This document shows, piece after piece, positions 1,832-39,090 of a DNA stretch of 40,202 nucleotides (position 1 is its first letter; each line of letters opens with the position of its first letter). The notes under the pieces are model-generated. The model saw nothing but the letters and a program-made list of their open reading frames with translations, was not told the DNA's origin and made no database searches. A program made the translations under genes and the position numbers. The DNA comes from Phoronis australis (lineage: Eukaryota > Animalia > Phoronida), in the NCBI GenBank assembly GCA_002633005.1, contig NMRA01000900.1, forward strand, positions 1 to 40,202. Reading direction: 5' to 3'.

Positions 1832-1987
1832 ATGTTGTACTCAGGACACTGTGCCTTTCGAACAGGAATAAAAGTGTTACTTTGTTTCGTAATTGTTCTT
1901 CTCCCTGCGTGTACTGCTGAAGAGGGTCCGTTGAGATACGTCCTGCCAGAGGACGGAGAAGTGACGATGCGTGAGATTTCGGAAAAG
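1832..1987 (+). CDS. Putative first coding exon with signal-peptide-like N-terminus (MLYSGHCAFRTGIKVLLCFVIVLLPACTA/EEGPLRYVLPEDGEVTMREISEK)
   Basis: ATG at 1832 with a purine at -3 and TATAAA at ~1795. Basic-hydrophobic-small-residue pattern. Phase-0 AAG|GTGAAA donor at 1988, then an ~80-nt T-rich intron-like stretch ending in AG at 2066 or 2068. Link to the downstream exons is inferred. Confidence 0.5.
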
Positions 1988-3558: not shown

Positions 3559-5941
3559 AGCACTTGTCATAAAACGTGGTTACCTGACTCTAATAAAGAC
3601 TTACTAGAAAAAGGCATATTTTCAGAATCAACGATCTTGACCCCTCTCAGAAAATGTATACTTTTAATGGTTGACAAATCAAACATTTTTCGATCATTTA
3701 TTAAGGCGCTATATAACACTAGTGTTGCTCGCATTTAGAGCTTTATCGCATATTCAGCCCACTGTCTACAAAACCGTAAATTCAAACTTGGGATCATCAA
3801 TATTTTCGAAGAATAGAAATGTTGCATAATTTGATATTTGATTTTTACACTCCAATGTTAATTGGATCACAATACCATGTCTTTTTACTAAAATAGGCAA
3901 AAGCTAAACATTGGTATCAGTCGCGTGAATTGGTGAAATGTTTGTGGTGGGATCTTAAAATGAAGTTATTGTAAGAGGTTTCTGAATTCGTTTTTGTTTT
4001 GTGCAACTTTAATGTTTGGTGAAAATCATAAACATCCTCTTTTTGAAATCCTCGTGAAAAACGGATATATTTTAAAAATAAGAGAAGCATGTATGACACC
4101 AGGTAAGTTTCATGTGAAACAAATAATCAGTAATTGAGATATGATATGGTGTTGACTATATTTTGGACATTTTCAGGGTCCTACTTCAGTTTAAAGCGCC
4201 TATAATACCGGCGTTCCGATCAAGTTGCCACATTTTGTTTAGACCGGATGCTCGCTGTCCCTTGAGACCATGGGAGGTTCATTAAATGGCACGTGGTGAC
4301 ATGACGGCTTACACTACTGACATTTAACTCTCTCGAAGCCCTTAACTCTGTATCAAAAATTATTCAAAATACCGGAAAGCACGTTTACAACCACTTATGT
4401 TTCATTGTTAGAATCCTCTAGAAAGAATAGTTTGTGTTGCTCATATTTTCACCCCTTTTGTAAAGACTTCATATCGGATTGTGAATGAAACATAGGTTAA
4501 ACATCACTTGAAAGTTTTAAGCAAATATTAAGTTAGTATTTAAACAAAAATGACACGGTGATAACAGTGTTATGTTCTGGAGACGGGGATGTTTGGAACT
4601 TTCTCTTTGTTCCGTCACCGAATTCTAATCCGTGCAGCTCTTAAGCGGATTTAGATGGGTCAGACTACCTTGATAGTTCTATGTATTTAACTGGCGGTAG
4701 GTGGGGATTAGTGCCTGCGCGAGTCTGTTTTGATGGAGAGGATACGAGTAAAACAAAAACAGCGATAACTGTTATAATAATTCTATACATGCACAAAAGA
4801 AACGGATGGTTTTGCAACAGGATTATCTCTAGACTGAAATAAAATTGAAGACGGCCCACATATGTTGTTGTAAGTCAAAAATCAATGTTTCCCATTGGTT
4901 GACACAAATGGAGTAGACCCTAATAATAGAGGATTGTCGTGCTATTTCATTGAGTCGTTGGTAGGTGCCAAGTTTCAAAGATGCAAATCGATGCCGGTGA
5001 GACCGACCTGTTGCGACCACCATGTCCATACATGTGAGAGAGTGGTGCATGTTGACTAGCTGACGTTGTTAGACTGTTTGGAATCGCTTGGCAGTTTGGA
5101 AATTACACAATGCTGGCCGACATCGAAAGCCGTTGTCTGATGACGTGTCGATGTCCTGTCAATGCAAAAAGGGCTGGAGTCGGAAAGTTTAAACCTTACC
5201 CCAATTTTCTGATTTAGGATGGTGCTGCAGTATTGTGAACTTAAACTTTGACGCAGGTGTGCATTGTGTGATTCATTACTTGAGCTACAAGAGCAAGTCG
5301 TACGTATCATTACAGATAGAGACGAAGATGAAGGTCGAGTTTCAAAGCAAAAGGACAAAGGTTAAGGGTGAAGTAAAACTGGTAAGATGGTTGGTTGCGT
5401 ACGGCGGCGCGGTAAGGCGGTTGGGTTGCGACACCTAGTGAATTTATTGCAAAACATTCCATACTCGGACTATAAAAGCAATGCTATGGTTGAAACTGAA
5501 AAATCGTTTAGTTCTGCGCACGTTGAGAAAGACAAAATTCTTTTGTTAGTGCTGGTTGTAGCAGGCTTTCTGATAATCTACTTGTATTACAAAGTCATAG
5601 GAAATGTGTAGATATGCACTGTGTCAATTTATTGTCTTTAATATTACTCGATCATTGATCTGGCGTCCAACAGAACTTATGTGATGCGTGTATATTGTCG
5701 CACACAACAACACAATGTAAACCGAAGCCCCAGACACGCACAGTAAGCTGTTCTTGCCGCAGTATACATTTATGCTGTCGGTGTACAGTATTTTCAACCT
5801 CCACGCATATTTTAGCTCCGAGCGGTCGACTGTAGCAGCGTGACCTGTTCAATCGCATATGTTGCGACTATGCAAAATACTCAAAATTAAGCGACAATGC
5901 ACGGGGTTCACAAAATAGTCATGCACTGAGGTTTAAAGTTA

Positions 5942-6594: not shown

Positions 6595-6690
6595 AAAAAG
6601 GCTGCCGTAGCAGCTGTGCTCTCCAAGTCACTGCCGTTGGCTAAATCAAGAAAGGAAAAACTAGTGAAGGAAGAGAAACAAGAGAAGGCA
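6595..6690 (+). CDS. Internal 96-nt phase-0 exon KKAAVAAVLSKSLPLAKSRKEKLVKEEKQEKA, probably of the micro-exon repeat gene
   Basis: Strong acceptor CTCCTTTTTCCTAG and consensus donor GTAAGT. Open frame, length a multiple of 3, K/E-rich like the downstream exons. Confidence 0.7.
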
Positions 6691-20420: not shown

Positions 20421-20751
20421 TCACACTAGCATTAAAGTCATCACATTATTATGCTGTATTTGATCTCTCAGATGGTGGCGCTACTTGTAACGCTGTGACG
20501 TATTTAGATCATAAGTCGGACATCTTAGGTAACTATAAAATCTTTGCCGCAGATCTGTCAAATTTCTATACTCACCATCTAGCAAACACGTCATCATCAG
20601 GATGGCAGTAGCAGAACATTCATTTAGACCTGAGTTAAAACATACAACGTCAATCGTACCCGCCAGCACCTGAAAGTATAACTTTCACTTTTATTTAAAC
20701 AATTCCAGTCCGTAAATACAAGCAAAAAGCGTTTGTATAACGTGGAAGTAC

Positions 20752-20860
20752 ACCAATCACCGAATGGTGGCGCGGCAGAGGGCGGGTCTATAGGTGCACA
20801 TGGGAACTACAACTCACATGATGTTCAAGCTGGTCTTGATCACGCCATTTCTATTGGCAC
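20752..20860. promoter_or_regulatory. Promoter-like motif cluster (CCAAT, GC box, SBS/ZNF143-like ACTACAACTCACA, ATTGG)
   Basis: CCAATCA ~20752, GGGCGG ~20780, ACTACAACTCACA ~20806 and ATTGG ~20854 and ~20862, just upstream of the minus-strand THAP remnant. Confidence 0.35.
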
Positions 20861-21876
20861 CATTGGGAGGCATGAATGCAAAGCGGTTATAACTTGGTCG
20901 CGCAAAATGCTCGACAACAGCACCGGGTAGTCTTTCAGAGGACCTAGGTCAGTATCTCAGAAACACCGTACTTTTTGACGACGTTATTAAATGAGAAATA
21001 ATATACACCCCTGGGAAATTTGATGATGAGCGCCGGGCTTTAAGCATAATTACTACAAGTGTTTTACCTGGCCTTGCATGAAGTAGAACCATTTGGCTAC
21101 GCGGTTAGCTTCTGATTCCCAAGTACTACACTTAGAGGGACTTCATGTTAGAAATCTTGGAGAAGCAGGCGATCAAGACGATTCATTCTGCAACACTTCG
21201 GCTTCATTGAATCCATTCGATATTAACACGTTCAATACTTCACCTACACCTAGATGACCGGTCAAGGTGCTAAAACTAGCCTATGAACACGGGATGATAA
21301 CTACGCAGATCACCATTTACGCAAATCAAGAACTTAGACCTTCTCTGTTTATTTTACCAGTGAAACGTCAATATACCATGAGAACTTGTTAGGAAATACA
21401 ATCCATGATCTTTCACTGTGACTTCCGTGGTTTCTCATGGCACCCATCGAATTCTTCTTTGGCATTTCCCCATTAATGAATGAACATAGGAGTATGGGGT
21501 TTAGGGTTCTTGCAGGAAATGGGATGCCTCATTCGACACCTGGTCGCTGTTAATGATATATTTAACCCATCTGAAAAGAAAACGGGAAATGTTTTAGTAT
21601 ATTTAGGTCTTATTCACACCACAGATTTTACAACAGTGTGTAGCTAACTTTCAATTGACACGACCGTGTCACACTCTCATCGCAAAATCCATTGACGTCA
21701 TCAATTTCAGTCTTCACCTTCTTCACAATTTGATGCAACTGATTTCGGTTCGGTGTGGTGGACAAAGCACGAATGAGGTGACACACAAACTAGTTAAAAT
21801 AGACGTATAGGAAAAAAATTGAATCGGGTTGCAAATGACGTTAATTTTTACAATTATAGTGTGATTTCTTTTTCAG

Positions 21877-21936
21877 GCTGCAGAGAGGAGGAGGTTGGCA
21901 CAAGAGTACATGGCAAACATCTTGGCCTCATTTATG
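21877..21936 (+). CDS. Micro-exon 1 (divergent B-like): AAERRRLAQEYMANILASFM
   Basis: TTTTTCAG acceptor, GTAAAA donor, 60 nt. Confidence 0.75.
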
Positions 21937-24900
21937 GTAAAACACACGTGTCTTCATCGTGAAACGCAATGTTTATGACATAATTGTGACGTCAATCGCA
22001 AACCCCATTTTTGTGGCCTCACATTTCTCAAATTTTTAAACATTGTCGGTGGATGTCTAAACTTCATTAATAAATTGCTTGTTTTCCAGGTTGGACTTAA
22101 TTTGATTTGCCACATGGATGAAGTTCAAACATGAACGGGAATCTGAAGCTGCAAAAGCAACGTAGTTGTTGAAGATTTTGGCGCCTATTTCTTTGAAGCT
22201 AAAATCGCAGTTTCCCCCCGGGTATTGGCAATTCATGGTAATAAAGGAGTGTTCCACGGACCCAATGTCTTCATGACATTTTAAAGTGTTAGCTCTGGGT
22301 TGAAGCATTTTGTCCAACACAACAGATTGAACGTGATGTAATGACTCTAAATTGACCCATCAGTCAGAAATTGAATTGTGTACAATGCAAATATTTATGA
22401 TCTATTTGTTTATTTGTTAAATTTCTGTTACAGGCTTCACAAAATACGGAGGGTGAAAATTGGGCTTGGCAAACTGTCAGCAGCATACTTCCGGTAAAAC
22501 TAATTCCCTCCACGCAAGACTACTGATGATTCTCTGGAGTCAGTTGGATCTTTTTGCCTTAACGCGAAAAACCCGGAACTCAATATTAAAAAGTTTATAA
22601 ATATTTTAAATCAGTTTTTGGCCGCAGTGAGCTTAAAAAAACGGACGATCACCGCACAAGAAAAAAGTTTATGTTTAATCGACAATTCGTCTATTCACTA
22701 GACATCATCAGGATAATTATTTAAAAGGACAGCAAGTGCCAACATACACCTCAGGTAACATTCATAAAGTGAGAATATAGTCAGTATCTGGTCATCACCA
22801 TAGTTGCAGGGTCACTGAGCTCTGCATGTTTTTCAGACAATAGATGGCATGCTGGTTCTGAATGGCCAAAGACTATTTAATGTACATTAATTCTTTACTA
22901 AGTTCGCTGCAGTTAATTCTTAGTGAATTGGCTTGGTCACTGTTGCTAACACAATGCCCATACATGTTGCTTTTCTCTTTAGTGTGATATTGTTTCAGCC
23001 TGTCACAGAGGCGTCTCTGTGTGAGTCCGATTAGAATTACTTACAGTTGTCCCGTTAAGGATACACTCTATAAACAACATGGCGATCGTTCAATAAAGGA
23101 TCCTTTTATTGAGAGGGCAAACTCCCTCTCGCACAGAAAAAGTTGTCTGTTTTTTCCTCTAAACATTTTCTTAGATTCCTGAAGTATTATCCAAGAAAAA
23201 AAAAACACACACGGAGAACGTGTAAAACTTGAAAAACTGCAATTAGCACAGCCTTGAAAACACGACCCGGCGTTTAAAGCGCGCTTGCTTTACCACTACA
23301 TGTATATCACCACAAACTTCACTCGTACTTTGATACTAATAGACTTACTTGTTTATGGTCCACAGTGTTTGCGCGCGAAACCTACTTATTTTTGTAATGT
23401 TTATTACACTTTTTATACTTTTATGCAATCAGTTTGTAACAAATTTGTTGTATTTAAAATAGTCTTTAATTGCCCAAAAGACCAAATCCGTTATTTTGTG
23501 TTGGCATTAATGCCGCAATTGCTTTGGAAATCGTCTTAGGGTTTGCCAACGAGAGAATTATGAGTTCCTGAGTGATTCACTAAGGCTTCGATTAAAATTG
23601 ACATCTGTTTTTTCATTGTCATTCAAATTCAACTTTTTTTAAAAAATGAAATATATTTTTTTCATTGCACAGTGAAGCAGACGACGGAAGCGGAGTCGTA
23701 GTGCGCAGTGCCACTGCCGGTGGCCTGGGATATCGCAGAAGAACTTATACTTAGAAATGGTTCTGTTACAATTGAGCCGTTTTCCGTATTAGACACTTGA
23801 AATTGGATCTGAGCAACAATCCCCCCCCAAACACACTAAAACTGCACACATTTCAGTCTTGTTTCCGCCGTATATTGTTAATTACCGGGGTTAGTTAATA
23901 AACTCAACAATTCACCTTCTCCTCCTGTTTTTTTGGTGCCCCCCTGCCCCCCCTAACTCCGCCTATGTACTGACTATATTCCATGTATCTCTCACTTCAC
24001 TTTACAGATGTTACCTGAACTGTTTGTTGGTACTTGCTGTCCTATAGTTATCCTGATGATGTCTAATGAATAGACGAAACGTTGATTGAACTTGAACTTT
24101 TTTAATTGTGCGGCAACGGTTGGGTTTTTGACCTAATAAATACATGATATTTGATAAAATACCGTTGAACTTAAGACTTTGCAAACCTTAATCAAGTAAG
24201 ATTGCATAGATACTTCTATTCAAGGACTTTAGCTATTTCTTTTTAACGCTAACTCGTGGTTACCTCAACTGTTCCCCAGGACTTTGTTTTCGCTAATCAA
24301 CGGTGTTTAATCTACACTCAGTGCAGACGGTACAATTAAAATATCACTTTCCGACGTCATAAAGCCAGTATCCATTTCACAACTGAATAATATTTTTTTT
24401 TCATTTGTCGTTCCGATGGAATGCCGTTTCGGCCATATTTATTGCCATCTGTAATACTAAAGAACTTTTGATTTCGTGGAATTCGTTAGATAATTCTGGA
24501 AATTGAATGTCAACTCTCACACGTGACCTATTGTTAGAGCTTGTAACCCCAATATTGTAAGGGATTGGACGAGAGTTTGGCCTATGCAATTCTTGCTTTC
24601 TGCTCGAATAAGTTTAGGACGCGAGTAACTTTGTAAGCTAGACTATCAAAATAAAAATGTGACAGTGTGGCTGAGTTGTTAAATAAACACTAATAAATGA
24701 AAAGTTTACCTTCGAAAAGGGTCCATTTCAATAATCTGTGCTACCGACAGCTTTCACTTTGCTTTCCAATCGTCTAGCAGTTGGTAGACTGTACCACATT
24801 TTGAGTTTATCCCGCAATCCCCAACAAAAAAAATCAAATTGTCCTACTATTTAACCCCGGCAAAATATGATATGATCACATACTTTTGTAATTTCACGCA

Positions 24901-27900
24901 CAACAAAGAAATGTTTTTTTCTGTTCAACCATTTGAAAATAGACTTTACACGACACTCTCCATTTTGACTAAAATGTGGACTTAAGAGTGCTACGTCTGC
25001 CGTTCGACAAAAATGTCGTTTGTGATATTTTGTAACCACAAAACTTTCCATAACTGTAGACGAAATTTGTTCGAAACACGTTTTTGGCGAAAACAGTTAT
25101 CAATCTATTTTGCTTGTACTTAACAAATACACTGCCCTATATTCGATAACACAAACCGCCCTATATCCCATAACAAAAAGCGAATAGTCACCATTTTTTG
25201 ACGTCATGAGTTTCAAATTGTATGCTGCATCACTCATAACAGTTCCTTTCCTAATTACTCTGCGCGTGCAAGCGCAGAGTATTGTTGTTCCTGGGTTTTC
25301 TTCAATTTTATTCTTATTCTTATTCTACTTCTTATTCTTCTTCCGACCAAATTGACACTTAATATCTGCAAAAGGGTTGCAGGTCTCAAATTTAAATTTG
25401 ATGTTAGGCAGTCTATAAATTTTGATTCATTATATATTCATATTCCATAATGCACCGAAGAGGTCATTAAGCGCAAAGGTCATGTAATTTTCAAAATGCT
25501 ACTCCTTTATTTTAAAAACTATTCTTTTAAAATTCGGTACACAGGTATAAGTCAATAAGGCAATTTAAAAAAATACTTTTCTAAGTAATCGGGTCATCCA
25601 ATCAGGTGAAATTGGTTAAAGGTCATTGGGTGCAAACCAAAATTTTGAGCTAGACACTTCAAATTGACAGGTCTGATTGCCACAGGTAAATCAAATCGGA
25701 ATCCAAAGTTTCAGGTCATTTAGTGCAAACATGAGGTCATTATGTGCATTTTTCTTCTGAAAATTTGACCTTTTCAATCAGCAAGTATTCTGATGTGTCA
25801 ACCGTTAGACAAATGTGATTCTCAGCGTTAAAGACATTTCCCATGGGCTTTGCAATAATTCTCCTAAAGACGCTTATAATGCACAGGATAGGGTCAATTA
25901 GTGCAAAGGTCATGTAACGTTCAAATTGTTCTATCTCTTACGTTTTTCAAGGAATTCTTTTCAATTTCAGCACAGAGGTGTAAGTCAAACATGCCAATTG
26001 AATACCCTACTTTACTTCGCAATAGGCCTAACCGATGAGAAAAAATAGATCAAAGGTCACTGAGTGCAGAATAAAATTTTGAGCTAGAGACTTCAGAATT
26101 ACATATCTGTTTACTAAGTGCGACCACTTCATTCATCTTATATTCTGAAGTGCTTAAAGTAAAACATCTGTGATTATTAGCATTAACCGCATTTTTAATC
26201 GAGTTAACAATTACTCTCTCATCGGGGCTCATATGCACCGGAAGAGGTCAATTAGAGGACAGTCATCAAAAATAATAATTATGTAATTTCTCCTACAATT
26301 TTAAAGAATTCCTTTTCATATTGGTAAACGGGGTTGCTGTCAGTAACTTCCCATAATAATTCCAGTAATACACACGCGTAGAGTCCGTTATTGTCACGCC
26401 GTGACAATAATCTTTTTAGTTTAGAGTGTCCTTTTACCAGATAACCCAACGCCACGCATATTTCTGCGTAGACGGGGCAGAATATTTCGCGTTCGTAATA
26501 TCCTCAGACTATTAACAATTCAAGCGTGTAACGTAGCTCTAAAAGAAATTTTATATTCCATAAGATGTTTAGAAACGAACATTAGGTCTTTAATAAACGT
26601 TAAAATGCAAGATAAATATATAACGAATGTATAAGAAATGCGAGCATTTGTGATCCATTTATTATTTCACTCTCATTTGTAGGATAAACAGGAGAAGAAG
26701 AAGAAGTCAACTATGAGATGGGTAGTCGTCATGCAGTCATTTTTGGTAAAATATTCATCTTTTCATCACGCAACAAAACTTGACAAAACATTGTGATTCA
26801 GTTGATGTCCTGGCATTCGAAAGGCCACCTAGGTGTTGTCTGAGAAAGTGTTTAATTCTGTAATGCGCCAAATATTACATAGGTTGTAAGCCACGTGATA
26901 TGCCGCACAACTGGAATCTCTACCTGCACCGATGAGGTACACGTGCATGTACATAGGGGACTTGAGCGTGAGGTATTCCGTATTACGGAGCATTGCTACT
27001 TGAACGCATACACTAAAATAGAATATTGCTCATGTGTAGGCTGCTATAGTGGAGATAAATGGTATTTTAGAATTCCGACGCCAGTATGCCATATGTTTAA
27101 TTTGTGACCTCGTAATCAACATGTTGTTGTGGATGAAAATTCAAAGAGTTTGACTTCCAACCAGTGTATGTAGGGACGTGGGGATCTTTTCGTTATAGAG
27201 CAGCCGGTCATCAAAGCATTTCAAGTAGATAAATGTGCGATGCTTCATTTTCTGGAACACAACCTACAGATTGTCTAAGCAGTGACCAGTGTCTGCTGCG
27301 GTATAACAAGTTTGTGATATTGCCAGTGAGTCGAATGAAACTTTAAAAACATTCCCGCAATTTAGGAATGGGAAATGTAGTAGCTTACGACTTCAACAGT
27401 TTCTCTAGGAAAAACTATCATGTGATCCTAAGGTTTGGATTGCGACCCAATAATATTCATTCCACCAATAGCGGATTTGCAGCGCAAACGAACTACGCAT
27501 TGCGCATGTGCGAGTTATTTCCTGCGCGAAGGCTCATGGGATAGCTTGTGGTCAGGCATGTCTTGAGCAGGCTGGATAGTGTGTGCATTTGGAGTGATTT
27601 GCAACCTAAAAACCATGTTTCATTTTTTGCTTTATAATACCAAACAAGTCCTCTCTCTCGTTTGTAAACACAGCGTAGCTATGATCAGTGACCGTGTGAC
27701 CGAGGGCACGACTGTCGTCATGTTCAGTGTTGGGCAACCGGCGTTGATTTCGAAATCTCCGGTTTCAGACAAGTTGATAGTTCTTGGGTTGCTTAGCTTT
27801 TGTAGCTTTCGCCGGGGATATGCTAGTGACGTTAATTTTAAAAGGAAACTGCGTCGGAATGTTGTTCTCATACGTCTTTTTTCCACCAGGAAAATGTTCG

Positions 27901-30900
27901 CTGCACACACGATGGCCCTTAGGCAATTACATTGCACTGGATGCCGCAGGCATTCAGGGGCGATAGTACATCCTCACAAAGAGTTACTCATTTCAAAATA
28001 CATCAAATAAAATCAAATGAACCATACATATAGGAACACGGAGTTATAATTAACGCATACCACGACACTGGATACAATTTAGTCAGCAAAACTTGAACAA
28101 ATCGATGAAAATCTGTCGCGGTTTGCTCGAGTTTCTCTCAGTTACCGCCGGGGTCCCATTTGAGGAAGTTATGTGAAATTACGAATGTTGACGAATAAAT
28201 GTCTAAGGGACACACATCTTACAAGTTTCACCCAATACCTTCTCATGCTATTTTACAAGTGTCACGCGCTAGCGTCACGCGCTTCGCTGAGTCTCGCGCT
28301 AACCTTTGCCTAACCCACGTGATTCAGTTGACATGATTTATGGTTATCGCGCAAACGGTGATAAAATTAACGGCAACCAAAAAGTGAAGTTGTAATTCTT
28401 CGCCAAAGTCAACTTAATTCTCACAACTAAGCTTAAGATATACATAGCAATAGAAAGGACCAATGATGAAAGTAAGCGTTTTTTAAATGATAGTTTTAAG
28501 AGTAGAATGTATTTTTGACGAGGTGAAAACTCGAAATCGGTAATCCATTCCGTTTAAAATACACTGAAGTAACGAAATGAGTACAGAAAGCGAATGGAAG
28601 TATTGTAGCCCCTGTATGGCCAACCGACGGTCTACGTGTTGCCTTCTAGATGGCTCCGCGTTGGTTTGAAGGCGCTAAATCTCTCCTTACTCCCAGCTCT
28701 CCTAATGTTGTTTATCCATTTTTCACGAAGTTCTTGGTTTGCAGGGAACACATAAAAACTCCGATTTTTATCTCTCTTGTTGTTTTTGAAGCAGCCAGGA
28801 ACACAACAAGTGTATCCGCCGTAAGTTTTATTCGCGCTCATACCGCATGTTATGCTTGATACTATGGCCGCTTTCGGAATCCTGACCACAGCACCCACAA
28901 TGCACCATTTTAACCTAATTTCAATATGGCGTCGCCGCAAATCCGCTATTGGATCCGTTTACGTTTTCATTTACAAACACCATACAGTGAATGAATTGAG
29001 CCGTAAAGAAATTTGATCTCCGCTTCCCGTCGCTTCCTCTAACCTATGCTTTAAGACGCAACTCACAATTGTATTTTGAAAAGTACCCAATTTTATGCAT
29101 ACTACAACATTTGAGTCACTGAATTGTTAGTTTCGTTATGTTGACCGCATTTTTGATTCGACCTGTGCTTATACACGTTCAACGATTTGCACATGCGCTT
29201 AGGTATGTGCTCATCACTGTAGCTAAAATAGTTCAGTGACCCCTTATATGTCTGAGAGTTTGAGCAATCGTAGCTATTCGAACGCATACAGGTCCATGTT
29301 CTTGCTGGTAAAGATTGGGCAGCTGTTACGTCATAATTTTGATTACATAAAGCAGAAAAAAATATAACTACAAACATCTGATTTCTTGACTGTGAGAGTG
29401 TCTCATTTGTATACCCATCATGGCGTCTAATAAAAAGAGCTCTAAACCACACGCGTACTGAAAATTTCTGGTGCAATGTTATGCGAACATCTACTAAGTT
29501 ATCAATCTTCTATTATAGATAGCCGAAACGACCAATAAGAAGAATTCTGTATGGGTAAACGTCAGGAGCCTACTTCCGGTAAAATAGTTTTCAACTCTCT
29601 ATTATTTGCAGGTCAAGGTGGTACTAATACTTTGAGAAAAAAATGAAAATTTGCTTTATTTTGATATGGAATCAAGGTATCGGCAAACTCGGGGATTTTA
29701 TCGAAGCACGGATTGAAGAGCAATTTCACTTTAAACACATTTACATAAACATGCGAGTCTCTTTAACCGTCAACTCGCACCACTTTGTGCCAATCAAATA
29801 CTCACCCCAAACCCTGAAAATTTTGGTGTTCAATTGTCCATCAGATACATGTACATGTAGGTTTATTGACAGTTGCTGAGGATAATGATATTTGCTAAGG
29901 TTATTGACAGTTGCTAACATTGCTGACCGTTGCTAAAGGTAGTTCATAACAATATCCCAGTGTTTGCAAGTTACTCTATTCAAATAAAAACAGTTAGCAA
30001 CAAACGCTTGATATTTGAATGCACCCCATACTGTGTTCCGCGTGCCAATGGTTGAGATTGTCTTGGAAGTAAAGTTTGACTATGCCTACTTGTAATATAT
30101 TTTTTCTGTTTACTACTGCTCAAGGGTGGACAAAAGAGGAAAGAGGATGCAACAATGAGATGGATAGTCATCATGAAGAAATTTCTGGTAAAACTCAATG
30201 AAAATTCGTCATGATCTCTTGCTTGTTAAATACCATTGTCATTGAGCTAAAACTTTCTTTTGGGGCTACGTGGTTTATTCCACACACCTCGGGCAATTTG
30301 TTTTTTGAAAAGCCTTGGAATCGCAAATAACCAGCAAAGCAATTTCATCAGTCGTTCTCTAGTATCTCGGATATGCTGCTTTTAAAATTGATATGGTGGA
30401 TCTGTTTTAAGATATGCAATTGTCTTTTTATTCACTCAAGCTCATCAGCAGTAAGAAACTGCCACGCACAAAGATAGATGACAAATTATTTTGTACAGTT
30501 TCTCACACTCATTGAAGTGTCAACACAATAACACGCGTCGTACACCTCATACATGTATATTCAATTTCATGAATTTCAAACATTTTGCAATAAGCACGGT
30601 ATCTATTGAATGCGAGAGTTCCTGACTTACATCTTATTCTCAATGGCAACTGCAATTTGCCCAAGTTACGCGGTGCTGCAGAACGTAAAGTTTACGAGTT
30701 TGAATAAATGCAGTATATTTATTTTTGTATTTCCTTTTCAAGGTTGCCCATAAAGAAGAGAAGAAAAAATCGATTTGGGAAATAATCACAAGGTTACTTC
30801 CGGTAGTACATTGGAATTATTTCGAAATTCTTGATAATGCTGTTGAAAAAATCGCGAAGCAAATAGCGCAGATGTCGTATATTTCATTTCATTGCCGACA

Positions 30901-33900
30901 GATGGCTTAGTTTTCGTATTTAAAATAGTTCATAATGGAAAGCAAGACGCTTTTTGATATCATTTGATCCACAGCCGCAAACCGTTCTCTTAATATCAAT
31001 GTTGTTTTAAAGTATCTAATTCCTGCTTGATGTTATGTCACCTACTTTGACCAATAAAAACTTCTTTGGAGTTTTGTCATAAAAGACTGCTTACGTTAGC
31101 TTCAAATACTTAGCTAAAATTAATCCAGTAGGTCTACATTTTTACAGCCGATCTATGAGAGTATTTGAAGTAAATTTTGACTACCTGTGATATATCTGTC
31201 TGTTTATTATTCCCCAAGGCTTCACAGAAGAAGAAACAGGATGCAACAATGAGATGGATTGTAGTCATGAACAAATTTCTGGTAAAATTTAATCCACAAT
31301 CGTCACGATCTTTTACTTGTCAAATAGTATTGTGAAAGAGCCAAAGCTTTCGTTCAGATTAACTGGGAATCATTCGTAACACCACGAGCACAGAAGGTCC
31401 TTGCTCCCACAAATAATCGTCAAAAACATTTTCCTCAGTCGTTCTCAAAAGTCATGTCCAAAGGTATATTGTATCGACACCATCTCACACGCCTCCTTCA
31501 TTCAATTTCATGAAATTTATTCACTGTTTGCAATAAGCTCCTTAATCTTTGAATACGTGCGGTCCTAATTTGCATCTAACTCCTAATGTCAACTGCAATA
31601 TGCCCATGTTACGCAATCCCACAGAACTTAACGTTTCCGAAGTTAAATGGGTGTACTATACTTATTGACGTATTTCATTTTCAAGGTTGCCCAAAAGGAA
31701 GAGAAGAGAAATTCGCTTTGGGAAATTATCACAACGTTACTTCCGGTAGTATATTGGATTATTTTAAAGTTCTTGGATAAAGGTGTTGACTTGTCTGTAA
31801 TTAACGTACACGTCATATATTCCGTTTCATTGCCCACAGGTGGCTTAGTTTTCGTATTTGAAATAGTTAATAGTGAAAGGCGAGAGGTGTTTCTCTTCAT
31901 ATCACGTGAACCACTGTCGTATTCCCTGCTTCTTATATCAATCATCCAATAAAGCAATTCATTTCTGCTCCATGTTACGTCATCTACTTTATCAATAAAT
32001 GCTGCTGGAAAGTTTTGTCCTAAAAGACTGATAACAGCATCTTCAAACTCTTAGCTGGGGTGATCTAATCTCTGTCGCAACGCAGTTGAGTTTGTTATAT
32101 ATAATAGAAGTTATTCCAGAGGATCTGAACTTTAGAGCCGATGTATGAGTTTCATTGAAGTTAAGCTTGACTACCTGGGACATGTTTGTCTGGTTATTAT
32201 TCTTCAAGGCTTCACAGATGAAGAAACAAGATGCAACAATGAGATGGATTGTCGTCATGAACAAATTTCTGGTAAAATCTAATCCAAAATCGTCACGATC
32301 TGTTACTTGTCGAGTAGCATTGCAAATGAACCATAGTTTTCCTTCCGATTAACTGGGATTCACTCGTAACAACTCGACCACTAGAAGACCTTGTCCCAAC
32401 AAATCACAGGACCAACAATTTCTTCGGTCGTTCTCTAATACTTTCTTGGACATGGTGCGTTTGATATTGATATGGTGGATCTGTTAAAACATGACATATA
32501 AGGTATTATGAAATTGTCATTTAGTTTACTCAAACTCATCAGAAGCAAGAAACTGTCTTGTCCAAAGATAAATGATCTATATTTGGGGCATTTTCATTCA
32601 CTTATCGAAGTGAAAACACCATCTCACACGCCTCCTTCATTCAATTTCATGACATTTAATCACTGTCTTCTATAAGCAGCTCATTCTTTAAATGCGTGAG
32701 TTCCTAATTTACATCTAACTCTTAATGGCAACTGCAATATGCCCAAGTTACGCAATCCCACAGTATTTAACGTTTACAAAGTTAAATACGTGTACTACAT
32801 TTATTGATGTATTTCATTTTCAAGGTTGCCCAAAAGGAAGAGAAGAAAAATTCGCTTTGGGAAATCGTCACCAGGTTACTTCCGGTAGTACATTGAAATT
32901 ATTTTAAAAGTCTTCTTGGACAAAGGTGTTAAAATGTCTGCAAACAACGTACACGTCGTATATTCCGTTTCATTGCTCACAGATGGCTTAGTTTTCGTAT
33001 TTGAAATACTTAATAATCAAAGGCTAGAGATGTTTCTCTTCACATCACGTTACCCACTGTCGTATTCCCTGCTTTTCATATCAATTATGCAATAAAGCAA
33101 TTAATTTCTGCTCGCTGTTATGTCATCTACTTTATCAATACAAGCTGCTGGACTGTTCTGTGATAAAAGACTGATTACATGAATTTCAAACTCTTAGCTA
33201 GGGTTGTTTAATCCGTGGTCGAAACACTGTTGAATTTGTTTCATAATATAGAATTGATCCCGTAGATCTGAAGTTTACAGCCGACTTTTGAGTCATTGAC
33301 GTAAAGCTTGACTACCGGTGATATATGTGTATGTTTATTATTCTTCAAGGCTTCACAGAAGAAGAAACAAGATGCAACAATGAGATGGATTGTCGTCATG
33401 AACAAATTTCTGGTAAAATCTAATCCAAAATCGTCACTATCTGTTACTTGTCAAATAGCATTGTAAATGAGCCCTTACTTTACTTCCGATTAACTGGGAT
33501 TCACTCGTAACACCTTGGCCAATGGAAGACCCTGTCCCAAAAAATCACCGGCAAAACAATTTCCTTATTCGTTCTTCAATAGTTACTTGGACATGGTGCA
33601 TTTAATATTTATATGGTGGATCTGTTATTAAATGACATATAAGGTACTATGAAATTGTCATTTAGATTACTCAAACTCATCGGAAGCAAGAAACTGTCGT
33701 GTCCAAAGATATATGATCCATATTTGGGGCATTTTCATTCACTTATCGAAGTGACAATGCCATCTCACACACGCCTCATTCATTCAATTTTATGAAATTT
33801 AATCGCGGTTTTCAACAAGCAGCTTATTGTTTGAATGGGTGAGGTTATAGTTTACATATAACTCTTAATGTCAACTGCAATATGCCCAAGTTACGCAATC

Positions 33901-36579
33901 CCACAGAACTTAACCTTTACGAAGTTAAATACGTGTACTATATTTATTGATGTATTTCATTTTTAAGGTTGCCCAAAAGGAAGAGAAGAAAAATACGCTT
34001 TGGGAAATAATCACAAGGTTACTTCCGGTAGTACATTGGATTTATTTTAAAATTCTTGGATAAAGGTGTTGAAATGTCTGCAAACAACGTACATGTCATA
34101 TATTCCGTTTCATTGCCCACGGATGGCTTAGTTTTCGTATTTGAAATAGTTAATAATCAAAGGCTACCGATGTTTCTCTTCATTTCACGTTACCCACTGT
34201 AGTACTCCCTGCCTTTCATATCAATCATGCAATAAAGCAATTAATTTCTGCTCGCTGTTCTGTCATCTACTTTATTAATACAAGCTACTGGACAGTTTTG
34301 TCCTAAAACACTGATAACAGCAGCTTCAAACTCTTAGCTGGGATGATCTAATCTCTGGTCCCAACGCTCTTGGGTTTGATATATAAAATAGAAATTATTG
34401 CAGTAGATCTGAACTTCATAGCCGATGTAGTAAAGCTTGACTACCTGTGATAGATGTGTCTGTTTATTATTCTTCAAGGCTTCACAGATGAAGAAACAGG
34501 ATGCAACAATGAGATGGGTTGTCGTCATGGGCAAATTTCTGGTAAAATCTAATCCAAAATCGTCACTATCTGTTACTTGCCAAATAGCAATGTAAATGAA
34601 ACATAGCTTTCCTTAGGATTAACTGCGATTCACTCGTAACACCTCGGCCACTGGAAGATCTTGTGCCAACAAATCACTGGCAAAACAATTTCCTTAGTCG
34701 TTCTTCAATAGTTTCTTGGACATGGTGCATTTAATATTGATATGGTGGATCTGTTATTAAATGACATATAAGGTACTATGAAATTGTCATTTAGTTTATT
34801 TAAACTCATTAGAAGCAAGAAACTCTCATGTACGAAGATAGATGATTCATATTTCGTGCAGTTTCATACACTGATCTATGTGACAACACCACCACACACG
34901 CTTCATTCAATTTCAAGAAATTACTCATTGTTTGCAATAAAGTTGGTATTTTTGAATACGCAAAATCGTAGTATACATTTAACCCTTAACGACAACTGCA
35001 ATATGCCCATTTTACGCAATCCCACAGAAATTAACGTTTACGAAGTTAAATACGTGTACTATCTTTATTGATGTATTTCATTTTAAAGGTTGCCCAAAAG
35101 GAAGAGAAGAAAAATTCGCTTTGGGAAATAATCACAAGGTTACTTCCGGTAGTACATTGGAATTATTTTAAAAGTCCTGCATAAAGGTGTTGTTAATTTC
35201 TGCAAACAACGTACACGTCGTATATTCCGTTTCATTGCCCACGGATGGCTTAGTTTTCTAATTTGTAATACTTAATAATCAAAGGCTAGAGATGTTTCTC
35301 TTTATATCACGTTACCCACTGTCGTATTCCCTGCTTTTCATATCAATCTTGCAATAAAGCAATTAATTTCTGCTCGCTGTTATGTCATCTACTTTATCAA
35401 TACAAACTGCTGGACAGTTTTGTCCTAAAAGACTGATTACATCATTTTCAAACTCTTAGCTGTTGTTATTTAATCTCTGGTCGAAACGCTGTTGAATTTG
35501 TTTCATAGTATAGAAATTATCTCGTAGATGGGAAGTTTACAGCCGACTTTTGAGCGTCATTGAAGTAAAGCTTGACTACCTGTGATATATGTGTATGTTT
35601 ATTATTCTTCAAGACTTCACAGAACAAGAAACAGGATGCAACAATGAGATGGATTGTCGTCATGAACAAATTTCTGGTAAAATCTAATCCAAAATTGTCA
35701 CTTTCTGTAACATGTCAAATACCATTGTTAGTGAACCATGATCGCTTTCCTTCCGATTAACTGGGATTGATTCGTAACACCTCGGCCACTGGAAGACCTT
35801 GTCCCAACAAATCACCGACGAAACAATTTCCTAGGTCGTTCTCTAATAGTTTCTTGGACATGGTGCATTTGTTATTGGTATGGTGGATCTGTTATTACAT
35901 GACTTTTAAGGTACTATAATATTGTGTTTCATTTAATTCAAACTCATCAGCTTAAGTGTCATGTACAAAGATATATGATCCATAATTCGTGTATTTTCAT
36001 ACATTTATCAAAGTGTCAACACCAGCAAACACGACTCATTCATGCAACTTCTGTAAATTTAATCACTATTCGCAATAACCGTCCAAGTCGTTTCCATGTA
36101 TGTATCATTTATTACATTGTCGTTGCTTTGAAGTCATCTTCGTGGTTAATCCAGGCTCATCAACACCAAAAACCTATTCGTTTTGTATTGCGTAGTCCAT
36201 ATTTTCGCCCCGATGTCCCTGCTTAAGCTCAAGTCGGTCATATCCCACGCGAAATCCTTAAAGGTTCCTTCACTTTACATCTTAACATCACGTGATTCTT
36301 TTTATTGTCATAGCGCAGTACTGTTCACGTGTTCTTATTGAAACTATGAAAGTTCAAAATTGTCTGCAACACCCATTTTATTATTTTGCTTTCAAAATTC
36401 CTGGTTTCCTTAGATATCACGGGATTACTTGAATGAGCCTTATCTGGGACAATCCTAGCAATGTTAATTATTCAAGATGAACTGCTTGAAATATATATAG
36501 TTTTAATTCTCTGTTCTAGGTTGATCAAAAGAAAGAGAAGGATAATTCTCTGTGGAAAATCATCACAGAACTGCTTCCG
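21877..36579 (+). CDS. Uncharacterised repeat-protein gene segment: 16 alternating 60/63-nt phase-0 micro-exons encoding 8 repeats of ~41 aa
   Basis: All exons are AG/GT bounded, multiples of 3 and open in phase 0. The phase-1 reading has stops in exons 22434, 30743 and 36520. No frameshifting indels in exons although the introns have indels; synonymous differences between copies. Confidence 0.88.
22434..22493 (+). CDS. Micro-exon 2 (A): ASQNTEGENWAWQTVSSILP
   Basis: TTACAG / GTAAAA, 60 nt, ends CTTCCG like the other A exons. Confidence 0.8.
22675..22717 (-). ncRNA. Second, degenerate hammerhead motif (inverted copy)
   Basis: The reverse complement reads CTGATGATGTCTAGTGAATAGACGAATTGTC; GAAAC is mutated to GAATT. 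Confidence 0.5.
24047..24091 (+). ncRNA. Penelope-type minimal hammerhead ribozyme motif
   Basis: CTGATGA-T-GTCTA-ATGAA-TAGAC-GAAAC-GTT: intact core, 5-bp stem II, palindromic AACGTT in place of stem III, imperfect stem I. Confidence 0.7.
25252..26421 (+). mobile_element. Helentron-associated non-autonomous element (HINE / DINE-1-like)
   Basis: 5' hairpin TACTCTGCGC..GCGCAGAGTA (25256-25281) and a (TTCTTA)n microsatellite at ~25308-25342. Internal AGGTCA-rich diverged repeats (~25449, ~25878, ~26232). 3' subterminal IR ACGCGTAGAGT (26374-26384), 3' stem-loop TTATTGTCACG-C-CGTGACAATAA (26388-26410), T-rich end. Confidence 0.85.
26683..26745 (+). CDS. Micro-exon 3 (B): DKQEKKKKSTMRWVVVMQSFL
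   Basis: TTTGTAG / GTAAAA, 63 nt. Confidence 0.85.
27470..28947 (-). mobile_element. ISL2EU-like (PIF/Harbinger-related) non-autonomous DNA transposon carrying a THAP remnant
   Basis: TIR AGCGGATTTGC(A/G)GCG at both ends with AT on both flanks (27468-69, 28948-49). THAP-coding sequence starts ~100 bp from the right end. No DDE or YqaJ domain remains. Confidence 0.72.
27670..28841 (-). pseudogene. THAP zinc-finger (transposase N-terminus) interrupted by a ~730-bp insertion
   Basis: 28841-28649 reads MSANKTYGGYTCCVPGCFKNNKRDKNRSFYVFPANQELREKWINNIRRAGSKERFSAFKPTRSH. It resumes at ~27914 as HRVCSEHFPGGK, then after a frameshift TYENNIPTQFP, with DHSY at 27675-27686. Confidence 0.88.
29519..29578 (+). 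CDS. Micro-exon 4 (A): IAETTNKKNSVWVNVRSLLP
   Basis: TTATAG / GTAAAA, 60 nt. Confidence 0.82.
30125..30187 (+). CDS. Micro-exon 5 (B): GGQKRKEDATMRWIVIMKKFL
   Basis: CTCAAG / GTAAAA, 63 nt. Confidence 0.85.
30743..30802 (+). CDS. Micro-exon 6 (A): VAHKEEKKKSIWEIITRLLP
   Basis: TTTTCAAG / GTAGTA, 60 nt. Confidence 0.85.
31219..31281 (+). CDS. Micro-exon 7 (B): ASQKKKQDATMRWIVVMNKFL
   Basis: CCCCAAG / GTAAAA, 63 nt. Confidence 0.85.
31686..31745 (+). CDS. Micro-exon 8 (A): VAQKEEKRNSLWEIITTLLP
   Basis: TTTTCAAG / GTAGTA, 60 nt. Confidence 0.85.
32209..32271 (+). CDS. Micro-exon 9 (B): ASQMKKQDATMRWIVVMNKFL
   Basis: TCTTCAAG / GTAAAA, 63 nt. Confidence 0.85.
32825..32884 (+). CDS. Micro-exon 10 (A): VAQKEEKKNSLWEIVTRLLP
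   Basis: TTTTCAAG / GTAGTA, 60 nt. Confidence 0.85.
33350..33412 (+). CDS. Micro-exon 11 (B): ASQKKKQDATMRWIVVMNKFL
   Basis: TCTTCAAG / GTAAAA, 63 nt. Confidence 0.85.
33968..34027 (+). CDS. Micro-exon 12 (A): VAQKEEKKNTLWEIITRLLP
   Basis: TTTTTAAG / GTAGTA, 60 nt. Confidence 0.85.
34479..34541 (+). CDS. Micro-exon 13 (B): ASQMKKQDATMRWVVVMGKFL
   Basis: TCTTCAAG / GTAAAA, 63 nt. Confidence 0.85.
35089..35148 (+). CDS. Micro-exon 14 (A): VAQKEEKKNSLWEIITRLLP
   Basis: TTTTAAAG / GTAGTA, 60 nt. Confidence 0.82.
35614..35676 (+). CDS. Micro-exon 15 (B): TSQNKKQDATMRWIVVMNKFL
   Basis: TCTTCAAG / GTAAAA, 63 nt. Confidence 0.85.
36520..36579 (+). CDS. Micro-exon 16 (A): VDQKKEKDNSLWKIITELLP
   Basis: TGTTCTAG / GTAGTA, 60 nt. 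Confidence 0.85.
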
Positions 36580-37179
36580 GTAGTACATTAAAATATAATT
36601 TCAAAAATCCTTGACAAAGATAGCGAGAAATCTCCGAACAATGTTGGTTATCCAAGTAAACTCTGTTAAAGTATCGTTTTCATGTACATGTAGGCAATCG
36701 AATGTGTAAAAATTTATTTACCTTAAAAACACGCTTAGTGTTAATAGAAGCGATCAAAACAATTACCCGAAGAAGTACCGAAAAGTGAAGTCTCCATTCA
36801 CTTAGGTCATTCTGCATATCAGTAACAATCGCGTATGGGTAGGTTCTCACTGATCACGTTTTCAGATGTGCGGTGCTTCAGCATCCGAAGACTCACTGCT
36901 TAATTACATTGTACATTGGTCTATATAGTGCCGCTTCCTGCGATCAATGACTTCCACACTCAATGGGAATGTCCTTGTGCACTGCGGAATAATGAAGTTG
37001 ACGGTGCTGAAAGCTAATAAACGTTCCAAAGAACGGCTCTTCGGCAGTACATGTATACGGCACTAACGCCCTCTCTAGGATATGATCTTTGAATCAATCC
37101 AATGGAACAAGGCCAATGCTTACTTTAAAAGGTGTTCTTCAGAATCTATCTACCTTACATGGAATGGGATCTGTTGCAA

Positions 37180-39090
37180 ATCTAAGCTCACATCTACTTA
37201 CTTCTGTCATTTCCGTGACAGAATGGACAAGCGTCGCGTCCAATTTTCACCCATTCTTACAACTTTAGATGGCGCAAGACCTACCGGAAACAAGGCGAAA
37301 CATTCTTGGAACATTTCGTATGACAAAGCAGTCCTGGCAAAAATGACCAGTAGAATCACCTAATCGTGCATTTGGAAGAACTATGCACGACACCAGAAAT
37401 CAGTTTTGTATTTATCACGTCTGCAACGCCGATAATTTGAGCAAGGAAGGTGCTCTAGGCCCTAACAAAGTCAACATTTCTGCCCTCAAAACACTAGCTG
37501 ATTCCGCAACTGCACAGTTGTTTACATCTTACTGTAGAAGCTGAGCTACTGGAGTTGCTCATCAAGTCTTTAAACATGCTTGTCTTAGACTAGAGCCGGA
37601 CCCGGTAAACATCATCCCTCCCTCATTGGATAATGCATATTTTTGATGAAAAATGTCGTTGACAAAATCCCCGGCAATAGAATTGCTCAGTAGACTGCAC
37701 ATTTTTTCTTCCCTTGGCTACCTTTCGGAATGGGGCAATACCTTCCTGGCACAAGAGCCTGGGCCAGTGCTGCTTCTAGGTTTGAAGAACTGTCAAGTGG
37801 ATTCGAAGACAAGGAACATACAATGTTTATTGCCCGGAACTTGGAAGACACCTAAAAAATCTGTTGGATGCAGTGTTGCACCTTAGAATCTCTGCTCTTT
37901 GATCCCACTGTGTCGTGGCTCTTGGTGTTCACAATCGGTGTCTATTACAACTGGTCTTCCGCAGGGGTCACCACTGTCACCCATCTACAAACTCCAACTC
38001 GCAAGCCTGAACCGTGCTGAATGTCGGCTAAGTACTTCGACGGAGGAAATATGGGTTACTGTTCCTTGGTAGAGTCTTCAGATTGCCATTGACAATACAC
38101 AGTTTGCCCTTGAGGAATCTAAGACTACTGCATAACCGAATACGAACGACAACGTTGAAAAGAATCGAACCTTTTTATGCACATTTGAAATTCGCCTTGG
38201 CGTTCAGAACGATGTGTCATCTATGTATGACGGCATGAACATCATTATATCCGATCTCCTTTGCCATTTGGGGATCCTGTTTGATCGTATACTCAAATTC
38301 CCAGCTCAGGTTAACAACGTGTTAACACGAGCCAATTTTTTCTTAAACGCTCTGACAGCTGCTGGTGTACATATGGCAGTAGAGCGGCAATTTGCATGTC
38401 TTACAAAACCTTGGTCCAGTTAATGTAAAAATATGCTCTACCCGAAGCAAGTCAATGGGTTTTACATACTATATTATATAGCACTGCGCGTCACCATAGG
38501 TTAAACCAAGACGTCTTCCACTGCGGGTCTGCAATATCTCAAGGTCAATCTTTGTGTGTTGGACCGAGAGGTTCATCAACCCGCAGTCACAGTAACACAG
38601 GGTATCCAAAACCACAATAACCCGCTGAACAATCAGCCGTCATAGTCTTTTGAGAGATCCATGGGCCCATTTGAACATCCACGACCGTGAAACTTCTCAC
38701 CAGCTACACGCATGGCGCGCTATCAGAGGTTACAGAAGGGTTCTTTCATCTTGTCGCCTAAATGCAACGCCCGTCGATGTGCTTGGGGATCACTCAATTG
38801 CTACAGCTGCAGGCTGGCTGTCTAATAATGGGGTCGGGGCTACGGCATCCGCCAAGGAAATGCCACTGTTGTGGTAAGATCTGGACGCCAGAGCGTATAC
38901 ATCAACAGCACTCGCGTGGACTTTGAGGCCGTATGAGGTAAGGCTATCGCCGCTGGATGTGAATCCGGGCATTCTAGTCTTAGCAACAGTTACTATGACG
39001 GTCCTGTCAAAATATCTTCTGGCCAAGCATCCAACGTGGGCGATGGCGTGGAGCTACATGTGTTTGCTTGGTCATGGCACATGGGACATC
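37180..39090 (+). mobile_element. Highly decayed non-LTR retrotransposon (APE-RT, possible RNase H; I/Ingi-group-like)
   Basis: SNFHPILTT (~37240), GALGPNKVNISALKTL (~37449), ITTGLPQGSPLSP (~37944-37982), HLGILFDRILKFPAQVNNVLTRA (~38265) and ALRVTIG*TKTS (~38481). Weak RNase H-like traces at ~38900-39080. Many stops and frameshifts. Confidence 0.85.

Follow-up and report, generated by a model that had tools for sequence, protein, structure and literature searches.

The gene and its exons

We found that the window, by which we mean the whole 40,202-nt stretch of Phoronis australis DNA analysed here, carries an expressed gene that ORF-based reading had overlooked and whose protein repeat had no match in any database searched. 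The protein repeat is undescribed; the gene architecture is of a known kind. A first-pass annotation had proposed, from the DNA sequence, a hidden coding gene in which each symmetric exon contributes one peptide module. This gene proved to be real and spliced, with RNA joints at the predicted edges. The 16 segments it had described in 21877..36579 are, as stated there, all bounded by AG and GT, all symmetric (phase 0-0), all open in the same frame, and strictly alternate between two types, A and B (the first A exon is 60 nt, the other seven 63 nt and all eight B exons 60 nt). Spliced together, they give 327 codons with zero stops. Frame 0 is the sole frame open across all 16 exons; internal stops interrupt the phase-2 frame in 11 copies and the phase-1 frame in five, rather than in the three first counted. 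The phase-1 frame, with its Cys-bearing repeat, was discarded on the stops in these five copies and a stop in the read sequence of the next exon. When 2308 open GT-ended 13-mers from both strands were scored, ranks 1-15 went to the 15 Trp-bearing exons (scores 20.8-34.8, next best 14.5), a separation that is partly circular, as the score was derived from the same exons. The exons, and the tandem block that contains most of them, are as follows.

21877..21936, + strand: A-type exon 1, 60 nt, diverged, Met for the anchor Trp; AG/GT, frame 0 open, positions 4 and 8 kept; no junction reads among those listed
22434..22493, + strand: B-type exon 2, 60 nt, diverged; AG/GT, motif kept; no junction reads among those listed
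26683..26745, + strand: A-type exon 3, 63 nt; AG/GT, open frame, repeat family D7; no junction reads among those listed
29519..29578, + strand: B-type exon 4, 60 nt; AG/GT, open frame, repeat family D8; RNA depth zero
30125..30187, + strand: A-type exon 5, 63 nt, first of the recent tandem block; AG/GT, open frame; RNA depth zero
30743..30802, + strand: B-type exon 6, 60 nt; AG/GT, open frame; in a bin with low + strand RNA depth
31219..31281, + strand: A-type exon 7, 63 nt; AG/GT, open frame; in a bin with low RNA depth
31686..31745, + strand: B-type exon 8, 60 nt; AG/GT, open frame; low X2 RNA depth
32209..32271, + strand: A-type exon 9, 63 nt; donor used by 5+8 X2 reads
32825..32884, + strand: B-type exon 10, 60 nt; acceptor used by 5 X2 reads
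33350..33412, + strand: A-type exon 11, 63 nt; acceptor assigned in 7 X2 reads, donor in 5 X1 reads
33968..34027, + strand: B-type exon 12, 60 nt; 3 X1 and 2 X2 reads joined to 34479
34479..34541, + strand: A-type exon 13, 63 nt; RNA joints on both sides
35089..35148, + strand: B-type exon 14, 60 nt; RNA joints on both sides
35614..35676, + strand: A-type exon 15, 63 nt; 5 X1 reads joined to 36520
36520..36579, + strand: B-type exon 16, 60 nt, from which splicing continues into an exon beyond the window; 5 joint reads, and a shared loose end past 36579 in 6 reads
30125..35900, + strand: tandem block in which a ~1.1-kb unit of A exon, intron, B exon and intron is present five and a half times; direct repeat families D2-D14

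Splicing in RNA reads

Spliced alignment of three Phoronis australis RNA runs (X1, X2 and X3), a check suggested at first pass, gave junction reads at the predicted exon edges, on the + strand, in two of the three (X1 and X2), which eliminates a chance or non-coding repeat. All eight listed joints lie at predicted edges (six as GT..AG, two listed as 'goes back'), and every one of them links A to B or B to A. Reads over the exon region all come from one strand, and the intron-only bins from 31986 to 36639 have zero depth. Expression of the gene is very low, with 21 and 25 reads in X1 and X2 (per about 1.7 billion bases each) and none on the exons in X3. The five 5′ exons have no listed joint: those at 21877, 22434 and 26683 had none among the 15 of 47 joints listed, which were crowded by repeats, and those at 29519 and 30125 had zero depth in all three runs.

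Four of the eight joints are non-adjacent, each compatible with an allele of the adjacent copy, at a depth too low to exclude skipping. The read letters agree with the adjacent paralogue in all three traceable paths, with eight of ten read variants present in a paralogous copy, so that neither circular RNA nor exon skipping is required for these joints. Six reads past 36579 share a loose end without a match in the window; since the reads continue into an exon outside it, the gene is longer than these 16 exons, which make up no more than an internal part. The segment 36866-36929 was rejected as the last exon, because the reads splice elsewhere. Three candidate exons further upstream, which may belong to the gene, are charged, and no signal peptide is visible in them.

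6595..6690, + strand: candidate exon, 96 nt, phase 0, Lys/Glu/Ala-rich; strong splice context, single open frame; putative link to the gene
5316..5381, + strand: candidate exon, 66 nt, or 45 nt via an earlier donor; AG/GT, open frame; putative link
1925..1987, + strand: weak candidate exon, 63 nt; AG/GT, open frame, poor acceptor; putative link

Selection on the exons

Exon and intron divergence, which the first pass had singled out for comparison, are unequal: copies differ by 7-10% in exons and by 17-20% in introns, and variable columns make up 20% of the exons versus 42% of the co-duplicated introns (p=2.5e-6). The exons had also been described as free of the frameshifting indels found in the introns. 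Pairwise gap openings, 0 in exons versus 140 in introns, agree with this, although the contrast is weaker when indels are counted as independent events (none of the 27 gap blocks lies within an exon, P about 0.05). Pooled dN/dS among the paralogous exons, another of the suggested checks, is 0.63-0.66, only moderately under 1; together with the higher conservation of exons than introns, it upholds the claim that the coding frame is under selection. The ratio is 0.33-0.63 in the helix core versus 0.9-1.1 in the linker (small counts), and the core appears to be the more strongly selected part.

The protein module

Each exon encodes a basic linker and a core of the form W1-x-x-[IV]4-x-x-x-[LF]8. 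In the donor-anchored register, columns 1, 4 and 8 alone are hydrophobic in all 16 modules, with Trp at position 1 in 15 of them, Ile or Val (never Leu) at position 4 in 16 and Leu or Phe at position 8 in 16. Two further A/B registers also yield three all-hydrophobic columns, and the 1-4-8 spacing is also plain alpha-helix periodicity, a pattern generic to helices. The B cores are strongly amphipathic (seven of eight rank among the top 5% when compared with their shuffles, and the six recent copies have a hydrophobic moment of 0.44-0.65), and the seven W-bearing A cores are no more amphipathic than their own shuffles (percentile 0.14-0.40). About 43% of residues are hydrophobic, Ala counted, the B module ends in an invariant Pro, and the net charge of the array is +31. 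Dibasic sites comprise 18 KK, 2 KR, 2 RR and 1 RK, with 0 G-K/R-K/R. A cytosolic product fits these 327 aa, which are free of Cys, N-glycosylation sequons and G-K/R amidation signals and lack a transmembrane stretch (maximum 19-residue hydropathy 0.51).

Searches for homologues

The annotation's statement that the ~327-aa repeat cannot be assigned to any family withstood searches of sequence representatives, Pfam, PDB and metagenomes, within the low power of short queries. A word-indexed search with the 16-exon alignment (A3) retained 0 of 2505 candidates of 78-2000 aa and 0 of 17 of 11-77 aa at E<=10, and exhaustive HMMER over 1,835,955,588 representatives gave 0 at E<=0.001; these are weak negatives, as the first row of A3 brought intron-coded flank columns into the profile and the queries are ~20 residues long. 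PDB sequences gave 0 matches for alignment queries A3, A4 and A5, and one chance match (E 2.1) for the candidate exon at 6595. In Pfam, 18 single exons matched only ATG29_N (E 0.043, below the family cut-off); none matched troponin, a comparison to which queries of 20-32 residues lend little power. Two ESM Atlas queries returned no usable match, pattern matches were confirmed in 0 of 599 and 0 of 229 cases in metagenome contigs and in 0 of 149 in viral contigs, and Rfam gave 0 matches. A keyword literature search, of low power, found no paper on such a protein.

Comparison with known systems

In the available text of PMC8622359 and PMC3871271, the XPC/Kar1 centrin target is a W1xxL4xxxL8 triad with positions 1 and 4 hydrophobic and with measured binding to the centrin C-lobe, and the Sfi1 repeat has the consensus AX7LLX3F/LX2W in the 8-4-1 orientation. 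The modules resemble these targets in their Trp-anchored hydrophobic triad at 1-4-8, and Sfi1 also in the many putative sites per chain. Unlike Sfi1, the array runs in the reverse, XPC-type orientation, and where the Sfi1 consensus has F or L, at position -3 from Trp, each of the 13 distinct cores has N, T, K or Q. Unlike in XPC/Kar1, the putative sites are arrayed and carry Ile or Val in place of Leu at position 4, a loose match to the triad. From both systems the array differs in its 20/21-residue spacing, two alternating types, one exon per site and absence of sequence homology.

With schistosome micro-exon genes (MEGs) the gene shares a run of small symmetric exons (symmetric in all 16 here), and some MEG products contain amphipathic helices. 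The label 'micro-exon' used at first pass, however, was overstated, as 60 and 63 nt exceed the cut-offs given in the accessible portions of PMC4671649 (<36 bp, for MEGs) and PMC10808074 (<51 nt). As far as the former text extends, MEG products are small (about 10 kDa) and secreted, with a signal peptide from a long 5′ exon, and alternative splicing is proposed, whereas the exons here are paralogous, the product has at least 327 aa, and skipping is not required to account for the reads.

A possible docking array for EF-hand proteins

Our preferred reading, given a probability of about one in three, is that the product may be an intracellular chain of predicted docking sites for small EF-hand calcium sensors of the centrin or calmodulin type. 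W1, I/V4 and L/F8 would be presented on one face of each module's predicted short helix, with the Trp entering the hydrophobic pocket of an EF-hand lobe and the lysine-rich linkers contacting its acidic surface. With sites 20/21 residues apart, the chain could take up as many as 16 lobes, or a single two-lobed protein on each AB pair, and the loaded array would act as a calcium-regulated scaffold or buffer. We favour this reading because of the hydrophobic 1/4/8 triad, the positive charge of the array set against acidic centrins (so described in the available part of PMC3871271), the cytosol-compatible sequence and the selection that seems to act more strongly on the helix core than in the linker. 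It is weakened by the ordinary helix periodicity of 1-4-8, by the two further registers with three all-hydrophobic columns, by I/V and never L at position 4, and by the reversed orientation and the departure from the consensus relative to Sfi1, the known repeat array; a signal peptide or C-terminal domain beyond the 16 exons could also change it. If the modules do bind centrin or calmodulin, they would line up many sites on one chain in the XPC orientation, an orientation that the accessible text of PMC8622359 and PMC3871271 describes only for single-site targets. A bolder version, which we consider improbable, would make the gene the first member of an undescribed animal class: an array of forward-oriented Trp-anchored helices, coded exon by exon and variable in copy number, that scaffolds calcium sensors. 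One calmodulin- or centrin-like protein would clasp each AB pair with its two lobes, and gain or loss of the 1.1-kb unit would tune sensor number.

The product could instead be a peripheral binder of membranes or lipid droplets, with cationic linkers on acidic lipids, Trp helices in the interface and many weak sites summed, in the manner of perilipin-4 or synuclein repeats. The net charge and the amphipathic B cores suit such a role, and basic amphipathic peptides bind lipids and calmodulin alike (PMC6162328, in the text available). We nevertheless hold it to be unlikely, as the Trp-bearing A cores do not rise above their shuffles, the predicted helices have only ~3 turns, and fixed residues at 1, 4 and 8 suggest a shaped pocket. 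Docking by short helical motifs to a non-EF-hand partner (a nuclear-receptor/co-repressor groove or other helix-binding pocket), with the lysine runs serving as nuclear import signals, seems slightly more doubtful: the cores match generic hydrophobic-x-x-hydrophobic-hydrophobic helix motifs (W-x-x-[IV] in all 15 W exons) and presumably resemble CoRNR/LxxLL boxes and Atg8-binding motifs, but such patterns occur too widely to point to any one partner, and no Pfam or PDB profile matched. A less likely arrangement again is that A and B helices pack as a 41-residue helical hairpin repeating into an alpha-solenoid, since a fold needing both helices would preserve the alternation seen in all 16 exons and all eight RNA joints, the older pairs without intron homology included. 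The hydrophobic content and the invariant Pro at the B end are in line with this; however, half of each module is a Lys/Glu-rich linker that seems to evolve almost neutrally, the charge is high, no repeat family matched, and duplication of the AB unit alone accounts for the alternation.

A secreted precursor from which cleavage at lysine pairs would release numerous cationic amphipathic peptides with an antimicrobial, cytolytic or signalling role, in the manner of some schistosome MEG products, is quite improbable. In multi-peptide antimicrobial and neuropeptide precursors, KR/RR convertase sites flank each copy, often with a Gly amidation signal; the array has its KK sites and cationic amphipathic cores, but hardly any KR or RR and no G-K/R signal. 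Symmetric exons of MEG-9/12/26-28 do encode amphipathic helices, in the accessible text of PMC4671649, yet the candidate 5′ exons are charged and lack a signal peptide, and expression is very low. It is also possible, though somewhat doubtful, that the gene includes some known flanking domain. That the repeats are an expanded extension of a known protein with its conserved domain outside the window, for example a troponin-I-like one with a long N-terminal extension, is very unlikely, and troponin itself as the flanking domain even more so. The charged candidate 5′ exons loosely resemble what we take to be troponin helices, and the gene runs on past the window; according to PMC5341096, the troponin motif of sea-urchin troponin I lies at residues 311-430, preceded by a long extension, and the protein may act together with calmodulin. 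Against this, Pfam and PDB were blank for the 18 single exons save for the sub-threshold ATG29_N, the exhaustive profile search was empty, and so low an expression would be unexpected of a muscle protein if the runs sampled muscle. Such an extension and the EF-hand docking array can coexist.

History of the array

The proposal of an undescribed system stands for the protein repeat, which is new, but not for the architecture, since the A/B alternation follows from tandem duplication of a two-exon ~1.1-kb unit and needs no special system. Nebulin, titin PEVK, tropoelastin and ribonuclease-inhibitor-type LRR exons belong to repeat proteins that likewise grew by tandem symmetric-exon duplication. 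The gene resembles them in having a module per in-phase exon, multi-exon units in tandem and alternating module types, whereas its sequence is unrelated, with no Pfam match and no LRR or other repeat signature. Because the exons are symmetric in phase, copy number can change without a frameshift.

The history of the array is unusually legible. A and B likely descend from one common ancestral exon, because their DNA identity is highest in the donor-anchored register (0.46 vs 0.22-0.35 in eight other registers). Judging from this identity and the homologous introns, one exon would have been duplicated into the two types and the AB pair then copied in tandem, most likely via unequal crossing-over. 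Eleven of the 16 exons lie inside the ~1.1-kb A+B tandem duplication with homologous introns; introns 5, 6 and 15 are homologous to introns 9/10 and introns 1-4 are not, so that the old pairs lack the intron homology that the young block keeps. We claim no order of duplication, as only one of 13 inner branches of the exon tree was well supported. Within the young block, we observed apparent allelic mixing between copies.

Results

A 16-exon array that is expressed and moderately constrained

The array at 21877–36579 is a real, expressed and moderately constrained gene segment, lying in intron-rich eukaryotic DNA with scattered transposon remains (GC 0.39, CpG observed/expected 0.81) whose general appearance suggests an invertebrate animal. 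All 16 exons proposed in the first-pass annotation were recovered by a scan for open segments bounded by AG and GT. Two types, A (seven exons of 63 nt and one of 60 nt) and B (eight of 60 nt), alternate without exception as had been proposed, and the claimed common frame, frame 0, is open in every copy. The phase-1 frame is indeed interrupted by stops, in five copies rather than three; the phase-2 frame has stops in 11 of the 16. A motif-score scan of both strands (2308 candidates) found no 17th module, the score dropping from 20.8 to 14.5 past the 15 Trp-bearing exons; this score was trained on the array exons themselves, and the diverged first exon lies outside its top 32. Six B exons (starting at 30743, 31686, 32825, 33968, 35089 and 36520) have GTAGTA at the donor, so that splicing 3 nt further on would stay in frame and add one Val; the listed RNA joints take the first GT.

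RNA data were three raw-read runs (X1, X2 and X3) and one contig set, under the same species label. Reads on 20300–40202 came mostly from transcribed repeats of introns 2 and 3, and the 15 of 47 joints listed included no exon joint, exons 21877, 22434 and 26683 among those lacking one. On 29480–40202 we mapped 21 reads from X1 and 25 from X2, and none from X3 on array exons. The first mate lay on the minus strand in all X1 and X2 reads, which in most stranded libraries denotes plus-strand RNA, and depth was located in exon-containing bins. Eight joints were listed there, every one A to B or B to A. Four connect adjacent exons at GT..AG (32271 to 32825, 34027 to 34479, 34541 to 35089 and 35676 to 36520), and the other four run backward or between non-adjacent copies. 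Each of these odd joints is accounted for if reads from an allele of the neighbouring copy were placed on a near-identical paralogue: the reads of X2 mapped to 35089 carry the letter of 32825 at offset 41, X1 reads mapped to 33350 contain two letters of 34479, and the backward joint to 31220 has an extra first base, as in 35614. Because these letters match adjacent copies, colinear splicing explains all eight joints; at such low depth the reads are also compatible with exon skipping.

Six X1 reads run past 36579 into sequence not in the window (best window match, 3 mismatches in 18), comprising ten codons with frame 0 open and the phase-1 frame closed. Exons 29519 and 30125 had zero RNA depth in all three runs; the missing 5′ exon reads may mean that these exons are truly excluded, or that they escaped detection through 3′ bias at a low expression level. 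Ten read variants fall in exons between 32229 and 35625, eight matching the letter of a paralogous copy, which suggests either that alleles have mixed among the copies, through gene conversion or unequal crossing-over, or that reads were misassigned. Sparse reads on the gene's own strand at 36998–39503, 3′ of exon 16, are what precursor RNA with a long intron still unspliced would give.

Among five recent units, pairwise mismatch was 0.10 (A) and 0.07 (B) in exons, against 0.20 and 0.17 in two intron classes, and pairwise gap openings numbered 0 in exons and 140 in introns. In the multiple alignment, 25 of 123 exon columns varied, as against 331 of 788 ungapped intron columns (Fisher p=2.5e-6, the columns not being fully independent), and none of the 27 distinct gap blocks fell inside exons (P about 0.05). 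Pooled pN/pS was 0.66 (A) and 0.63 (B); by region, on few changes, it was 0.33–0.63 in an 11-residue core and 0.9–1.1 in the linker.

Duplication history and novelty

Strong alignments link introns 5, 6 and 15 to intron 9 or 10 (scores 213–414, against shuffle maxima of about 27), and introns 1–4 show no such alignment; the array therefore holds two older pairs followed by a young block in which an AB unit of ~1.1 kb is repeated in tandem. Anchored at the donor, the last 33 bases of A and B are 46% identical, compared with 22–35% in eight other registers, a likeness that points to derivation of both types from one ancestral exon. The A/B split is weakly supported in the exon tree, which resolves little else.

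Repeat proteins that grow through tandem copying of in-phase exons are a known architecture; the array is ordinary in kind, though unusually clear, and its predicted helical module of 20/21 residues is undescribed. No relatives were found in any sequence collection searched, and we regard the gene as a provisional orphan, since the queries were short and other than the spliced protein itself. Keyword searches of titles and abstract openings returned no published description of the repeat. A schistosome-type micro-exon gene was ruled out, as those exons are described as under 36 bp, encoding small secreted products (PMC4671649).

The encoded product and its possible function

Spliced, the exons encode 327 residues (Lys 14%, net charge +31) that include no Cys, sequon, amidation signal or transmembrane stretch. 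A module consists of a charged 9–10-residue linker and then the 11-residue hydrophobic core, which ends at the splice donor. In the homologous A/B register, core position 1 is Trp in 15 of 16 modules, position 4 is Ile or Val in all and position 8 is Leu or Phe in all, and these are the only columns hydrophobic in every module. Modelled as helices, the B cores are strongly amphipathic; the Trp-bearing A cores have hydrophobic residues on most of their faces and score no higher in amphipathicity than shuffles. Three candidate exons lie upstream, none of them showing a signal peptide:

1925–1987, plus strand, candidate upstream exon, phase 0, charged
5316–5381, plus strand, candidate upstream exon, phase 0, charged
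6595–6690, plus strand, candidate upstream exon, phase 0, charged

Our preferred reading, with a probability of about one in three, is that the product works inside the cell as an array of helices on which EF-hand calcium sensors would dock. The centrin-binding triad is described as W1xxL4xxxL8, with Trp anchoring in the C-lobe pocket, and one Sfi1 chain as able to bind about 20–25 centrins (PMC8622359, PMC3871271). The conserved positions of the module have the same spacing, and the basic flanks would suit acidic EF-hand proteins; we infer every step from motif to binding. Position 4, however, is never Leu, unlike that of the triad, the modules depart from the Sfi1 repeat consensus, and the 1-4-8 pattern is also ordinary helix periodicity. 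For these reasons the likeness means that the product may work like centrin targets, not that it belongs with them.

Lipid-surface binding by the array is unlikely. Docking to another helix-binding partner is slightly less probable still, and a folded AB solenoid is more doubtful again. We consider a secreted peptide precursor improbable. A troponin-like extension, prompted by PMC5341096, is very improbable, and PMC5888912 adds nothing specific on it.

Transposon-like elements and repeats elsewhere in the window

A Harbinger-like transposase fragment (DDE_Tnp_4, E 1.9e-17) lies at 10426–10821 (plus strand), and an ORF of opposite strand at 12015–12368 (minus), without a Pfam match, may be its partner gene. 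Intron 3 contains a THAP domain ORF (28632–28958, minus strand; E 2.4e-9) in a repeat with RNA reads on both strands. The ~1.44 kb element at 22661–24103 in intron 2, between inverted repeats of 60 and 47 nt, is likely a non-autonomous DNA transposon, and RNA reads show opposite-strand joints in it. Another possible DNA transposon, at 14168–19492, has 34-nt inverted repeats 5.3 kb apart and subterminal short repeats; short minus-strand ORFs inside it may be exons. The repeat at 25250–26420, which contains internal direct repeats as well as a TTATTC microsatellite, has heavy one-sided RNA coverage (depth about 355 in X3); being 90–99% alike, the reads probably derive from other copies. A 17-bp minisatellite of 24 copies occupies 3137–3558, and a perfect 44-bp triple repeat 6306–6442.
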